Of a stretch of DNA of 64,000 nt, positions 1-4,292 are shown piece after piece. How positions within the stretch are numbered: position 1 is the stretch's first letter; every line of letters begins with the position of its first letter. The translations under genes were made by a program, and so were the position numbers. Source of the stretch: a virus (lineage: Duplodnaviria > Caudoviricetes); IMG/VR virus record IMGVR_UViG_3300031953_000001; one strand, written 5' to 3'. Under the pieces are notes generated by a model. That model saw nothing but the letters and a program-made list of their open reading frames with translations, made no database searches and was not told the DNA's origin.

Positions 1-770
1 GTATCGCGCCGGTGGATCAGTTTGATGATCTGTGCGGGGATGTCCCATTCCCACCAGCGTTCTTGGGTGGTCCACCGCGAAGGATGGGCGTGGTGGTTGT
101 TGTGCCAGCCCTCACCCATGGTGACCAAGTTGGCGATCCAGCTGTTGCGACTGGTGTCACCCTTAAGGTCGTGGTTACGATAACCGTGCAGGTGAGGGAT
201 AACGATGATGCCGCAGGCGCTGTGCAACGACAAGATTGCGGGTACGGCGTAGACAAAGACCACGCCTTGCCACCCCAGCGTTATGTACAGCAGCAAACAC
301 CAAAGGATCAGGATCTCAAAGTAGTTGGCGTGCATCCATCGGTGCAACGGGTCTTTACGAAGCCCTTTGGAGACTCGACCCGCTTGGGTAAACCCCGAGG
401 TGTTCCAGACCCCGAACCAAGCTCTGAATACCCCGATGTTTTGTGGGCTGTGTGGGTCGTGCTCTTGATCGGTGTGTATATGGTGGATGCGGTGTACGAT
501 GGTCCAAGCCAAAGGGCTACCCACCGTGGTTAAAACCCCACAAAACAGTAAGAACGCTTCTATGGGCTTGTACGTCTTAAACGCACCATGAGCCGCCATG
601 CGATGAAAGCCGACGTTGATGCCCAAGATGCCAATGAACCAGTAGGTTAACCACGACACCATAAGCCAGCCCCACCAGCCTTGTACGACCGCCCAGATCA
701 CCAAGGGTAAGGCGATGATGTGGGTGGCGATTTGCAGTAAGCGTACGCCTTGGTTGTGTGTAAGTTTCAT
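1..770 (-). CDS. membrane acyl-CoA/acyl-lipid (delta-9-like) fatty acid desaturase, 3' end beyond window edge
   Basis: Not in the ORF track because it has no stop inside the window. Hand translation from ATG 770 gives MKLTHNQGVRLLQIATHII...FHRMAAH...VHRIHH...GEGWHNNHHAHP...WWEWD, with all three His boxes and hydrophobic segments. Confidence 0.93.
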   Translation of the reverse strand, partial: MKLTHNQGVRLLQIATHIIALPLVIWAVVQGWWGWLMVSWLTYWFIGILGINVGFHRMAAHGAFKTYKPIEAFLLFCGVLTTVGSPLAWTIVHRIHHIHTDQEHDPHSPQNIGVFRAWFGVWNTSGFTQAGRVSKGLRKDPLHRWMHANYFEILILWCLLLYITLGWQGVVFVYAVPAILSLHSACGIIVIPHLHGYRNHDLKGDTSRNSWIANLVTMGEGWHNNHHAHPSRWTTQERWWEWDIPAQIIKLIHRRD

Positions 771-773
771 GCC

Positions 774-1532
774 TTATCCTCGTTTTTTAATGAGCCAAAT
801 GAACATCGCTGGGGGATCGATCTCCCACCAACGGACTTGAAAGTTGTATCGCCCAGGGTGCGCGTGGTGGTTGTTGTGCCAGCCGTCGCCCATGGTCAAA
901 AAATGACACAGCCAACTGTTCTTGCTGTTGTCCTTGATGTCGAAGTTACGGTATCCCCACTGATGCGCTAAGATGGCCAAGGCGTAACTGACAAAGAAGG
1001 TTGACAAAGCCGCGGGGATCAGATAGACCGCGATCACAATCTCAACCCCCCAAACCAACCACAGCGCCGCAACGATTGCCAGGTGCAGATGAAAATAATA
1101 GCGGTGTATCCACATGAACGATGGGGTATCGAGGATGTCTCGCATCGCCACTCGCCGGTCCTCGGTTTCAACGTAGTGCAAACACCATAAGGATTTCCAA
1201 TACCCCATGTGCCTATGACAATGGGGGTCTTTGGGTGTTTCGGTGTATCGGTGATGTACCCGATGTATCCACGCCCAACTGTGGGGAGTGCCTACCGTAC
1301 AAGGCACACTCAGAAGACCCAAGGCCCACTCTATCGGCCCGTACGTCTTAAAGGATCGATGCGATACGTACCGATGTAAATACGCGTTGAACCCGATGCC
1401 CTGAATGACGCCGTAAGCCAGCACACTGACCCACAACAACCCAGGGTCGGTCATCGCCAGATACACCACCCCAGGAATAAAACAAGCAAACAACATTAAC
1501 CGCCACCAGTTTAACCGTTGGGTGGTAAACAT
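774..1532 (-). CDS. membrane fatty acid desaturase (delta-9-like), tandem paralog
   Basis: His boxes LHRYVSH, IHRVHH, WHNNHH. Start moved to ATG 1532, which has an AGGAG SD; the ORF track starts at 1565. Confidence 0.93.
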   Translation of the reverse strand: MFTTQRLNWWRLMLFACFIPGVVYLAMTDPGLLWVSVLAYGVIQGIGFNAYLHRYVSHRSFKTYGPIEWALGLLSVPCTVGTPHSWAWIHRVHHRYTETPKDPHCHRHMGYWKSLWCLHYVETEDRRVAMRDILDTPSFMWIHRYYFHLHLAIVAALWLVWGVEIVIAVYLIPAALSTFFVSYALAILAHQWGYRNFDIKDNSKNSWLCHFLTMGDGWHNNHHAHPGRYNFQVRWWEIDPPAMFIWLIKKRG

Positions 1533-1542
1533 AACACGTCTC

Positions 1543-2748
1543 CTAATGATGTTTCTGCAAAGCAAGGACTGAGTTTAGACCCCCAAACCCAAACGCAGTC
1601 TTAACCACCACGTTTATATCCACGTTGTCTTGACGTTGAGCCAATTGAATGGGGGCCAAGTCGGGATCGAGTGTACTCACTGGGTTGCCCACCAAAAACC
1701 GATGGTTCATCATCAGCACACTGTACCATATCTCAAGACTGCCTGAGGCGGTAACGCTGTGGCCGGTTAACCGTTTAAACGCAGTGACCGGAACGCTATC
1801 GCCATAGACGTCGTAAATCGCTTGAGCTTCGGCCACGTCGCCGTTGGGGGTTGACGTTGCATGGGCTGAGATGACGTCGGGGTATATCCCCTGAAGGTCC
1901 AGTTGCGCTTGCACTGAGGCCATGCAGCGCCGGGCTCCTTCCCCGGTGGGGTTGGTCAAGTCGCCGCCGTCGGAGTAATCCGCGTAAGCCACGCAGCGGG
2001 CGTAAGCGAACGTTCCTTGACGAGCAACCCAATGTTCATAAGACTCTACGATCAAACAGCCACCGCCTTCAGAAATGGTAAACCCCGCTCGATCTTTAGA
2101 GAAGGGTGCCGACGCATGAGTGGGATTATTGCCTCGGTACAACGCCCGCATGGCGTCAAAGCCGGCCAAGGTCTCCCCCAGAATCTTCTCAGCGCTCACA
2201 CAGACCACCACATCGGCTTTGCCCAACTCGATCAAGTCCATGGCCTGGGTAACCGTACGGACCCCAGAGGCGCAGGCGTGTTGAACCGTGTGCACAGGTC
2301 CTCGAATATTGAACAAGGCCGTTAGAGGTCCTGTGACAGCCGTGGGGATAGACTTAAGCAGCGCAAACGGGGAGGTGCGCTTTTCTCGATACCCCAACAG
2401 CGAATGCAATCCGTCGATTCCTGTGGCCCCCATCGCTGAGACCAACGCGGTGCGCTCACTGGCGAAGACCTCAAGACCCAACCCGGCGTCCGCCAAGGCC
2501 CGTAGAATAGACACGTAGCTGATGGCCAGAGTGTCGTTGTACACGCTCTTAGGTAAGTCGCGGGCAGGACTGTCCTCTTTAAGGTTGAACACGCAAGGGC
2601 TCCAAAAACTGGCTTTGAGGTTCTTGCTGAGTATCGCCATGGGACTGATGTTGGACGTCTCTGCTTTGAGGTTATCCACCAGTTCTTGCTGTGTCTGCCC
2701 CATGGGGGTGATTCCACCGGCGCCGGTGATGAGGGTATGAACGGACAT
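1543..2748 (-). CDS. fabF: beta-ketoacyl-ACP synthase (FabF/FabB family)
   Basis: Cys-His-His triad motifs QHACASG, SAHATST, KRLTGHS; PFSKDRAGF and C-terminal AFGFGGLN; 401 aa. Confidence 0.93.
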   Translation of the reverse strand: MSVHTLITGAGGITPMGQTQQELVDNLKAETSNISPMAILSKNLKASFWSPCVFNLKEDSPARDLPKSVYNDTLAISYVSILRALADAGLGLEVFASERTALVSAMGATGIDGLHSLLGYREKRTSPFALLKSIPTAVTGPLTALFNIRGPVHTVQHACASGVRTVTQAMDLIELGKADVVVCVSAEKILGETLAGFDAMRALYRGNNPTHASAPFSKDRAGFTISEGGGCLIVESYEHWVARQGTFAYARCVAYADYSDGGDLTNPTGEGARRCMASVQAQLDLQGIYPDVISAHATSTPNGDVAEAQAIYDVYGDSVPVTAFKRLTGHSVTASGSLEIWYSVLMMNHRFLVGNPVSTLDPDLAPIQLAQRQDNVDINVVVKTAFGFGGLNSVLALQKHH

Positions 2749-2756
2749 GGCGTGGT

Positions 2757-3311
2757 TTACTCTTTTAGATAGACATCAATGGGGATGGCCAATCGTAACC
2801 CTTTGGCGTGTTCTTGCACGTAATGCTGCAAGTACGATGGGAAGATCAGCAACCCCCCCGTTTGGGGTTGGTGTTTGTACGGTTGAAAGTGGTTGTTGAT
2901 CACATCCCAAGGGTAACCGCGCGAAGCCAGACCGCGTGGGTCGCACACGGTTAAGTACCCCTCGCACGCTTCTAGATAATAAATGGCTGACACATGCGCC
3001 CCGGTGTGGTGGTGCAAGGGCGTACCGTGACCATCACTGCTGTTGCGCACCCACGCCTGCCAACTGTCGATCAGAGGCTCGTACGCAAACTGTTCGCACG
3101 CGTATTGCATGATCAACGGGATCAGCTGATCTTCCACAAACGCTTTGAGTCGTGGGTACTCTGGTAGATGGAGGTTTTTGGTCTCATCGATGGGGCGATC
3201 GTCGTAGGATCGACCAGGCATCAAGGCTTCTTCCACCAAGGCGTCCAGATTGGGGGCTGGAACCGTTTCTTCACGCAGTACAATCTTCCACGGTTGAATG
3301 TCGGTGGCCAT
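2757..3311 (-). CDS. putative 2OG-Fe(II) oxygenase (TIGR02466/PF13759-like)
   Basis: HHHTGAHVSAIYYL, DPRG, LLIFPSYLQHYV, distal R-x-A-I motif. Confidence 0.8.
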   Translation of the reverse strand: MATDIQPWKIVLREETVPAPNLDALVEEALMPGRSYDDRPIDETKNLHLPEYPRLKAFVEDQLIPLIMQYACEQFAYEPLIDSWQAWVRNSSDGHGTPLHHHTGAHVSAIYYLEACEGYLTVCDPRGLASRGYPWDVINNHFQPYKHQPQTGGLLIFPSYLQHYVQEHAKGLRLAIPIDVYLKE

Positions 3312-3321
3312 AGTTGAGTCC

Positions 3322-3885
3322 TTACTGGGGTTCTTTTAAATACAGATCGGTGGGCAGAGATACCCGCAACCCCTGACCGTGACCGTCAACGTAATGCTGC
3401 AAGTACGATGGGAAGATCAGCAAGAGTCCCGCTTGGGGGTTCTCACTGAACAGGTTAAAATGGCGGTTCCTCACGTCAGTAGGATAACCGCGACACGCCG
3501 ATCCCCTAGGGTCAACTAAGTTGATGCTGCCCTCACTGGCGCAGGGGTAATAGATGGATGACAAGAGTGCCCCACTGTGCTCGTGCAGCTTCATGCCTTC
3601 GCCCCCTACTGTCACGCGCAACCAGGCGGTGTAACTGTCCACAAACTGCCGTACCCCGAACTGCTGAGTCAGGTAGTCTTGCAAACGAGGCACTATCTCA
3701 TCGTACACCAAGCGATGGGCTTGAGGGAAATCGCGTTCTGACACCGTGTTGTCATCCAACTCCAACCCATCGAAGTTGCGATTGGTGGACCGCATCAAGG
3801 CTTCTGTGATCAACGCCTCGTTGTCCACTCCTTCAAGAATCTCCCGTCGTACCACACAGCGCCAGGGTTCTAGGTCTTGAAACAT
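3322..3885 (-). CDS. putative 2OG-Fe(II) oxygenase, tandem paralog
   Basis: LHEHSGALLSSIYYP, DPRG, LLIFPSYLQHYV. Start moved to ATG 3885 (GGAGG SD). Confidence 0.8.
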   Translation of the reverse strand: MFQDLEPWRCVVRREILEGVDNEALITEALMRSTNRNFDGLELDDNTVSERDFPQAHRLVYDEIVPRLQDYLTQQFGVRQFVDSYTAWLRVTVGGEGMKLHEHSGALLSSIYYPCASEGSINLVDPRGSACRGYPTDVRNRHFNLFSENPQAGLLLIFPSYLQHYVDGHGQGLRVSLPTDLYLKEPQ

Positions 3886-4292
3886 GCAGCCTCCGCTAGA
3901 CACTCGTCTTTAAAGTAACGCACCGTAAAATCCACCCAGAGCCCGGTTAAAGGAATGTGGTCTATCCCCCCCAGCCCTTCAAGGATTTTGTCGTAGTCCG
4001 TTTTGTTCTCACTGTAAGGCACAAAGTACGGGTCGTTGCCAAACAACAAGTCAGGGTCATCCAATACCTCGTAGAAGTCTTCGTCAAAGTGATCGCGCAA
4101 CAGTCTGGCATAGATAACCGCAATGGCGTACGATTTCCCTGGATAAACAGACGCGGCTATAGGAGCACGAAAGTACCGTAAAGCCTCACCCACAACGTCA
4201 GGATCGGAGATGGTGGTGAAGTTGCGGGTATCGTCGCTGTGCTCTTCCGTCAGTCGGTGGTACAGAAGTTGATTGACTTTCCATTCTTTCAT
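3870..4292 (-). CDS. hypothetical protein in radical SAM cluster (YPGKSY motif)
   Basis: ATG 4292 overlaps the upstream stop (ATGA); acidic DDPDLLFGNDPYF segment. Confidence 0.7.
   Translation of the reverse strand: MKEWKVNQLLYHRLTEEHSDDTRNFTTISDPDVVGEALRYFRAPIAASVYPGKSYAIAVIYARLLRDHFDEDFYEVLDDPDLLFGNDPYFVPYSENKTDYDKILEGLGGIDHIPLTGLWVDFTVRYFKDECLAEAACFKT

Follow-up and report, generated by a model that had tools for sequence, protein, structure and literature searches.

A FabB-like ketosynthase coupled to an array of five membrane desaturases in a jumbo phage genome

In the Jam, bacterial polyyne and NodE systems, several membrane desaturases or a specialized ketosynthase build an unusual unsaturated chain with the help of housekeeping enzymes of type II fatty acid synthesis (FASII). 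Among phages, the single fatty acid desaturases (FADs; vFADs where viral) of cyanophages were established experimentally as Delta9 lipid desaturases (Roitman et al. 2017, PMC5776448). Twelve vFADs were later reported from four viral populations, 10 of the 12 from cryopeg brine and 11 of the Delta9 type; a role as auxiliary genes for fluidizing host membranes was proposed, purifying selection on them was reported, and at least four host-to-phage transfers were inferred (Zhong 2020, PMC7300359). Here we analyze a stretch of 64,000 nucleotides from virus record IMGVR_UViG_3300031953_000001 (the window), at one end of which a gene for a FabB-like beta-ketoacyl synthase (KS) is followed by the first two of five FAD genes. 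The genes are intact and lie tightly coupled; they are phage-specific, are conserved together and have no ancillary genes with them, and we put the chances at about even that KS and the five FADs form a host-dependent module for unsaturating the lipids of the infected cell.

A further study of the cryopeg brines described two viral operational taxonomic units (vOTUs) that encode FADs, of which vOTU43_CB18_222366 is a complete, circular genome of 222,366 bp with a predicted Pseudomonas host and with FADs transcribed at a low level in situ (Zhong 2023, PMC10405475). Our record is almost certainly this Arctic cryopeg-brine jumbo phage, and its five FADs are almost certainly among the 12 published vFADs. 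The IMG/VR virus record is 222,493 bp long and rated 100% complete, and the window corresponds, in reverse orientation, to its bases 46133-110132. The record has tail fibres, a baseplate, a UvsX-like gene and split RNA polymerase subunits of the phiKZ type, which identify a jumbo phage and bear out the first description of the DNA as that of a phage. As a viral FAD auxiliary gene should, the SCD-type desaturases thus lie inside a bona fide complete jumbo phage genome. A chimeric assembly or contamination of the cassette was considered and rejected, because its GC content is as in the rest of the genome and its gene order is common to at least 10 independent assemblies. IMG/VR lists "direct terminal repeats" for this record; since the record is exactly 127 bp longer than the published genome, these repeats probably reflect an overlap left by assembly at k=127 and would then not be true phage termini.

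The word "ketoacyl" occurs in neither of the two brine papers (PMC7300359, PMC10405475), and "synthase" is also absent from the first of them (PMC7300359). For freshwater pelagimyophages, fabF and a stearoyl-CoA desaturase appear in a one-sentence gene list (Zaragoza-Solas et al. 2020, PMC7029224); beyond this report, our literature search returned no other paper in which a phage is said to carry a KS-type gene together with an SCD-type desaturase, and nothing on phage clusters of KS, acyl carrier protein (ACP) and desaturase genes. In the literature searched, the intact KS, its invariable coupling to the FAD array, the five-ortholog structure and the link to fuller, ACP-bearing cassettes of other giant phages appear to be undescribed.

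The ketosynthase and desaturase genes

An earlier note, made from the letters of the window alone, had read the KS gene (Table 1) as encoding an intact Cys-His-His enzyme of the FabF/FabB type, and our analysis upholds this with all catalytic residues present. The N- and C-terminal domains of the two-domain thiolase fold are both found over ~400 aa (ketoacyl-synt, PF00109, 1.1e-25; Ketoacyl-synt_C, PF02801, 2e-19), and the closest solved structures are those of FabB (4xox, 216 bits over the full length; E. coli FabB, ~203 bits), with FabF scoring lower at 169 bits. Structure alignment and a 44-sequence alignment locate Cys159 (HACASG), His296 (HATSTPNGD), Lys325, His330 (TGHS) and the gating Phe388 (GFGG), all five of which are invariant across the 16 members of the phage clade. 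Because the fold and the catalytic residues are all in place, the encoded protein is predicted to be an intact decarboxylating, elongating condensing enzyme. It stays below the NCBIfam equivalog cut-offs for both FabB (NF005935, 239.5 bits against 630) and FabF (TIGR03150, 228.2 bits against 493.75), and since it also falls outside the canonical FabB clade we refer to it as FabB-like and not as FabB.

The first desaturase, FAD1, follows so closely that its AGGAG Shine-Dalgarno sequence overlaps the KS stop codon, its ATG lying 10 nt past that stop. The mechanically called open reading frame (ORF) spans 774-1565 from a TTG; the ATG at 1532, which stands after TAGGAG, is the likelier start and yields 252 aa, as in the orthologs. 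FAD2 in turn has its ATG 3 nt past the FAD1 stop and behind AGGA, so that KS, FAD1 and FAD2 are separated by gaps of 3-10 nt and have their own Shine-Dalgarno sequences. That FAD2 is missing from the ORF track, as had been observed, is correct and arises because the gene runs off the first base of the window; the cut ORF on the minus strand matches FA_desaturase. The full gene, of 266 aa, ends 31 nt beyond window base 1, and the copy in the window lacks the last 10 codons and the stop. Two tandem desaturases with three His boxes each had been described here, and both are real; it is their number that has to be revised, as a search of the whole genome finds exactly five FADs. The third, outside the window, continues the tandem and overlaps FAD2 by 4 nt, whereas the fourth comes after a tail-fibre-like gene and the fifth 4 kb further, i.e. 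4 and 8 kb beyond the tandem trio.

The His boxes of both FAD1 and FAD2 read HRxxxH, HRxHH and HNNHH. FAD2 aligns to mouse/human SCD1 (4ymk, 4.7e-17; 4zyo, 1.3e-16) with boxes 1-3 and the His of transmembrane helix 4 (TM4) in register, and the nine His ligands (HX4H, HX2HH and HX2HH plus the TM4 His) are in register in all five FADs of the phage. Across the five groups of FADs found in the clade, the nine iron-ligand His residues are kept in 32 of 33 sequences. Against a Pfam FA_desaturase cut-off of 29.7 bits, FAD5 scores 41.8 and the other four copies of the phage 58-71. The DesA-family equivalog NF049918 is not reached (29-86 bits against a cut-off of 400), the phage FADs covering positions 5-232 of its 385. 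By these features the FADs are Delta9-family (SCD-like) membrane di-iron desaturases, with their regiospecificity a prediction.

Some 1.2 kb past window base 1, a 93-aa ORF that comes after the third FAD is closely followed by a perfect hairpin (11-bp stem, 4-nt loop). This hairpin is the likely end of a long co-directional operon that includes radical S-adenosylmethionine (radical-SAM) genes, KS and FAD1-3; in a scan for promoters and terminators, in which counts were not above those in shuffled sequence, it alone stands out. The 93-aa ORF and a 76-aa ORF near the FADs, considered as possible ACPs, have no Pfam or NCBIfam match.

Conservation of the unit and its neighbours

The context of KS was compared across ten loci of its clade, eight on metagenomic contigs (up to 135 kb) and two on IMG/VR contigs (73 and 170 kb). 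In all ten, KS lies directly beside one to five FADs, among tail-fibre, cupin-like and endolysin genes, and in nine it is a FAD of the same orthologous group as FAD1 (group A) that comes directly after it. In the phage studied here the cassette is set among tail-fibre genes, in a variable accessory region, and a muramidase gene comes after the desaturase block.

A search of 5.8 billion protein clusters returned 17 relatives of KS at 43-87% identity, after which identity falls abruptly to the <=37% of cellular FabB (33-37%). Rooted on cyanobacterial FabF, the KS tree resolves a monophyletic phage clade (SH-aLRT 100) on a long stem, on the FabB side of the tree yet outside the canonical FabB clade; all sampled viral KS proteins group on one side of the tree with support of 81-97, a grouping that comes with explicit long-branch warnings. 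KS has no match to any PHROG family, and tblastn against GenBank phages gave only matches of <=37% identity, mostly to fragmentary or unannotated records labelled phage. A scan of IMG/VR with the single KS protein found no match, and a scan with the alignment of the KS clade found two members. Judged from these comparisons of sequence, the KS clade is rare and phage-only.

The FADs of the clade are equally structured. In a 70-sequence tree they form five groups, each with support of 98-100 and each with members from our phage and up to six others, and the same five groups hold in a tree of 264 sequences. The groups span phages whose KS proteins share only 44-50% identity; FAD identity is 44-60% within a group and 22-39% between groups. 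Group B, to which FAD2 belongs, has the signature IVIPH in TM4, while group E is marked by HRVLTH, HNAHH and NTWGH, with an HxxHH variant, and is confined like KS to the phage's own lineage (10 clusters, after which identity falls to 30%). The groups have the appearance of paralogs that arose long ago by duplication inside phages and have been kept under constraint. Because they are ancient and separately conserved orthologs, different specificities are favoured over simple gene dosage, and the five FADs, instead of being plain extra copies, are probably specialized by position, chain length or lipid substrate.

The best cellular matches to the FADs among 185,579 species genomes are 28-36% identical and come from cyanobacteria, planctomycetes, acidobacteria and Acinetobacter. 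In the 264-sequence tree, the 182 viral and 82 cellular FADs part with only 2 label changes, the cellular sampling for this tree being limited to the best 80 loci and its deep support modest (80). A radiation of FADs within viruses would fit these trees better than the at least four host-to-phage transfers proposed earlier (PMC7300359).

Recent acquisition of host-like genes, which the earlier note had named as the outcome that would speak against its reading, is not what these comparisons reveal: KS is <=37% identical to cellular FabB and the FADs are 28-36% identical to their best cellular matches. The same observations bear on the explanation that the genes are passengers, either recently captured from a host or decaying, with no role in infection. 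Such an origin would be in keeping with their place in a variable accessory region among tail-fibre genes and with the low level of FAD transcripts in situ (PMC10405475). Against it stand the lack of any close cellular relative, the retention of catalytic residues across phages at 44-50% KS identity, a gene order kept in at least 10 independent assemblies and the purifying selection reported for viral FADs (Zhong 2020, PMC7300359), and taken together these make the passenger explanation very improbable.

Upstream of KS lies an array of radical-SAM and 2-oxoglutarate (2OG) oxygenase genes, which ends in two 2OG-Fe(II) oxygenase genes that abut KS. An array of this kind is found beside KS in six of the ten loci (our own, L006, L010, L011, L107 and L108), and none was found within ~10 kb of KS in the other four (L007, L008, L012 and L013). 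Because the KS-FAD unit stands without the array in these four loci, the array falls outside the module and is a separable neighbour, and it is the KS-FAD unit that is the conserved entity. The proposal that the enzymes make an acyl chain dedicated to the radical-SAM cluster next door is not supported by this comparison, which the earlier note had itself put forward as a test.

A related explanation is that the cassette acts as acyl donor for modification of a phage protein or peptide, such as the Cys/His-tailed virion protein of the radical-SAM/2OG array, or for lipidation of a tail-fibre protein. It draws on the six loci in which KS abuts the array, on the location of the whole block between tail-fibre genes and on two unrelated giant-phage contigs in which radical-SAM genes flank FADs. 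We consider it unlikely, given the four loci that have neither radical-SAM nor 2OG genes within ~10 kb of KS and FADs, the lack of a PF01553 acyltransferase in the genome and of any acyltransferase or GNAT among the 20 Pfam-scanned ORFs downstream of FAD1, and the want of an ACP to carry the chain.

Two further families accompany the unit. A phage-only family of ~170 aa travels with KS and FADs in nine of the ten loci, frequently as the gene immediately upstream of KS and at times present twice. Neither Pfam nor PHROG has a match to it; its AlphaFold model (pLDDT 93) is a bicupin like pirin, HutD and YhaK, with no obvious conserved metal site. The bicupin model rules out a dehydratase or a flavodoxin, as the fold is neither hotdog nor flavodoxin. 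The second family, a small protein of 78-101 aa whose N-terminus is hydrophobic and whose T-[DE]-N-x-x-D-D motif is invariant, comes after the last tandem FAD in four phages. It was tried as a hidden ACP and rejected, hhalign against a genuine phage ACP giving a probability of 0.1%; it matches PHROG 2738, to which no function is assigned.

Partner functions here and in other giant phages

Partner functions were searched for across the complete 222-kb genome at E<=1, with controls that rang in 10-14 reference genomes. No match was obtained for ACP (PP-binding, PF00550), FabA/FabZ, phosphopantetheinyl transferase (PPTase; ACPS), fatty acyl-AMP ligase (AMP-binding/FAAL, PF00501), thioesterase (PF00975), the electron carriers searched for, namely rubredoxin (PF00301) and 2Fe-2S ferredoxin (Fer2), short-chain dehydrogenase/reductase (SDR) of the FabG/FabI type, or PlsC-type acyltransferase (PF01553). 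The absence of an ACP from the window, as first reported, therefore extends to the genome as a whole. The sequence past the window edge, where it had been suggested to look for one, contains the third, fourth and fifth FADs. Likewise no ACP was found in any of three KS-clade records, our own, G019 and G020. Since the genome encodes none of the partner functions searched for, KS and the FADs must use the carrier protein, FASII partners and electron donors of the host, with host ACP as the presumed carrier. The analogy to bacterial polyyne and alkyne clusters that the earlier note had drawn does not survive these searches, because the four components that define such clusters, FAAL, ACP, thioesterase and rubredoxin, all give no match in the genome.

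Other viral loci present a fuller picture. Short viral FADs (~250 aa) match at least 517 stretches in IMG/VR; 42 of the best 80 of these loci have two or more copies within 8 kb either side, and 7 have a KS. ACPs adjoin FADs in five of 15 multi-FAD viral records. In a 364.5-kb IMG/VR phage rated 100% complete (G012, locus L198), a KS/ACP cluster precedes two FADs in the order ACP, Rieske [2Fe-2S] protein, 302-aa protein, FabA/FabZ-like dehydratase, ACP-like 122-aa protein and KS, after which come three unassigned genes, an ABC1/UbiB-type kinase and the two FADs. This locus can be read as a miniature set of fatty-acid synthase genes in a phage, possibly with an electron carrier. Locus L126 (IMGVR_UViG_3300013006_001903), on a putatively viral contig of 52.6 kb that CheckV rates 2% complete, has 11 FADs around a 386-aa KS, together with a canonical ACP (GGDSLD), a PPTase, a RimK-like ATP-grasp protein and a QueC-like PP-loop protein. 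Among the loci examined it is the fullest version of the cassette.

On a 348.5-kb giant phage-like metagenomic contig (L095), a hexapeptide-repeat protein is encoded with a divergent 354-aa KS and four FADs. The hexapeptide-repeat protein, a left-handed beta-helix of LpxA/acyltransferase-like type, stands directly upstream of KS and hints at an acyl-transfer step at that locus. Ten or more viral loci have, within 8 kb of FADs, a QueC-like PP-loop ATPase of ~300 aa homologous to that of L126; this could be a partner enzyme for adenylation, or merely a common phage 7-deazaguanine gene.

These loci lend some weight to a private specialized-lipid pathway, in which KS and the five FADs would act in sequence on one ACP- or lipid-bound chain to give a defined polyunsaturated, conjugated or acetylenic product. 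The logic would be NodE-like or JamB-like, the product would serve the phage, for example as a phage-specific membrane, a signal or an antimicrobial, and the phage would have lost its own ACP and use that of the host. Consistent with this are the five distinct, conserved FAD groups with active-site motifs of their own (e.g. HNAHH and HxxHH in group E), the rarity of the KS clade and of group E and their confinement to the phage's own lineage, and the long stem of KS outside FabB, with the sampled viral KS proteins on one side of the tree (81-97 support, again subject to long-branch warnings). So are L126, with its 11 FADs, KS, ACP, PPTase, ATP-grasp and PP-loop proteins, the complete 364-kb phage with ACP, Rieske protein, FabA-like dehydratase, second ACP and KS near FADs, and the five of 15 multi-FAD records in which ACPs lie beside FADs. 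On the other side, there is no ACP in our genome, G019 or G020, and with no PPTase, FAAL, thioesterase or rubredoxin our genome has nothing to load, release or export a product; all five FADs moreover belong to the Delta9 "first desaturase" family, of which the characterized viral members act on ordinary membrane lipids (PMC5776448). On balance we hold the private pathway to be possible and regard it as the main, if tentative, alternative. A bolder version, which we consider rather doubtful, is that the cassette is no fluidity booster and represents a stripped-down form of a carrier-protein-dependent phage pathway to a defined lipid, polyunsaturated or acetylenic, that the phage itself would use during infection; fuller forms of that pathway, in other giant phages, include up to 11 FADs and their own ACP, PPTase and dehydratase.

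Table 1. Positions of the genes and other features discussed. Positions given without a locus name are those of the window; L005 is the locus of the phage's own genome, including DNA past window base 1.
Feature	Position	Strand	Basis or remark
KS, predicted FabB-like elongating beta-ketoacyl synthase, 401 aa	1543-2748	(-)	PF00109 and PF02801; FabB structures
FAD1, orthologous group A, predicted Delta9/SCD-type membrane di-iron desaturase, 252 aa	774-1532	(-)	PF00487, 2.3e-19
FAD2, orthologous group B, cut by window edge	1-770 (ORF 3-770)	(-)	PF00487, 2.1e-17
FAD2, full gene	L005:4231-5031		266 aa
2OG-Fe(II) oxygenase gene (context)	2757-3311	(-)	PF13759, 2.4e-13
2OG-Fe(II) oxygenase gene (context)	3322-3903	(-)	PF13759, 2.7e-12
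Hairpin, likely operon end	L005:6186-6211		11-bp stem, 4-nt loop
~170-aa family, own copy	L005:12050-12574		~7 kb beyond window base 1
~170-aa family, other copies	L007:9484-9990; L010:9418-9942; L011:8068-8601
78-101 aa family, own copy	L005:6251-6556		TDNxIDD
78-101 aa family, other copies	L006:11985-12227; L010:14377-14628; L011:13098-13334
11 FADs around KS	L126:1-16738
ACP	L126:14510-14752		GGDSLD
PPTase	L126:6285-6617
KS/ACP cluster, then two FADs	L198:7585-19981
Hexapeptide-repeat protein	L095:6274-6885
PP-loop ATPase loci	L150, L159, L171, L176, L179, L180, L184, L188, L189; L094:9364-9978

Proposed role and comparison with known systems

Pseudomonas-type hosts make unsaturated fatty acids by way of FabA/FabB and also by the Delta9 desaturases DesA/DesB; since they use both routes, the phage carries a counterpart of the key enzyme of each. 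In the host-dependent lipid-unsaturation module that we favour, KS would condense host malonyl-ACP with host acyl-ACP and so boost the FabB step, which is limiting for unsaturated fatty acid synthesis by the oxygen-independent route, while the FADs, located in the inner membrane and supplied with O2 and host reductant, would insert cis double bonds into existing acyl chains. In a subzero hypersaline brine, the lipids of an infected cell would thus become more unsaturated, probably with double bonds at different positions. The substrates of the enzymes, their regiospecificities and the benefit to the phage are likewise proposals of this model. The experimental precedent in cyanophages (PMC5776448), the cold saline habitat and the lack of ancillary genes all fit.

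The earlier note had offered two readings of the locus, and remodelling of host membrane lipids remains the better of them, with in our estimate as much to be said for it as against it; the other half, an acyl chain for the neighbouring cluster, is not supported. Several observations weigh against remodelling. One FAD would suffice for fluidization, as in cyanophages, and five anciently diverged FADs with a long-branch KS exceed that need. In other giant phages the relatives of the cassette come with an ACP of their own, a PPTase and a FabA-like dehydratase, which gives them the look of a dedicated pathway. The module is also placed among late tail-fibre and lysis genes, and FAD transcripts are low in the brine metatranscriptomes (PMC10405475).

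Whichever product is made, the locus alters the picture of phage desaturases, which are usually seen as single host-derived "fluidity" genes; here a fixed set of five ancient orthologs is tied to a phage-specific KS. The short viral FADs appear to form a radiation of their own, and other giant phages extend the theme with ACP, PPTase and dehydratase, which suggests that phages run more elaborate lipid chemistry than catalogues of auxiliary genes imply. For the cryopeg system, these results would revise the published account of FAD origin and add the missing enzyme, KS. The cassette also provides a concrete, synthesizable set of genes with which phage lipid chemistry can be tested.

Compared with FabB, the KAS I of proteobacterial FASII, the phage KS is alike in fold, length, Cys-His-His triad, catalytic Lys and the gating Phe of GFGG, but it is only 33-37% identical, sits on a long stem outside the canonical clade and is encoded without FabA or ACP. 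JamA/JamB/JamC, the bacterial polyyne clusters (cay, pgn) and the specialized KS and ACP pair NodE/NodF resemble the phage cassette in that multiple desaturases or a specialized KS are paired with help from FASII. In gene content, the phage genome differs from JamABC, cay and pgn in that it has no FAAL, private ACP, thioesterase or rubredoxin. The pelagimyophages, in which fabF and a stearoyl-CoA desaturase were listed, are T4-like and belong to another phage group, and linkage, paralog sets and conservation were not analyzed there (PMC7029224). The closest parallels are the cyanophage and cryopeg vFADs, which like those described here are phage-encoded, Delta9/SCD-type, di-iron enzymes with a proposed role in membrane fluidity; whereas cyanophages carry one FAD, the phage studied here carries five orthologous groups as a fixed set, with a KS at its head.

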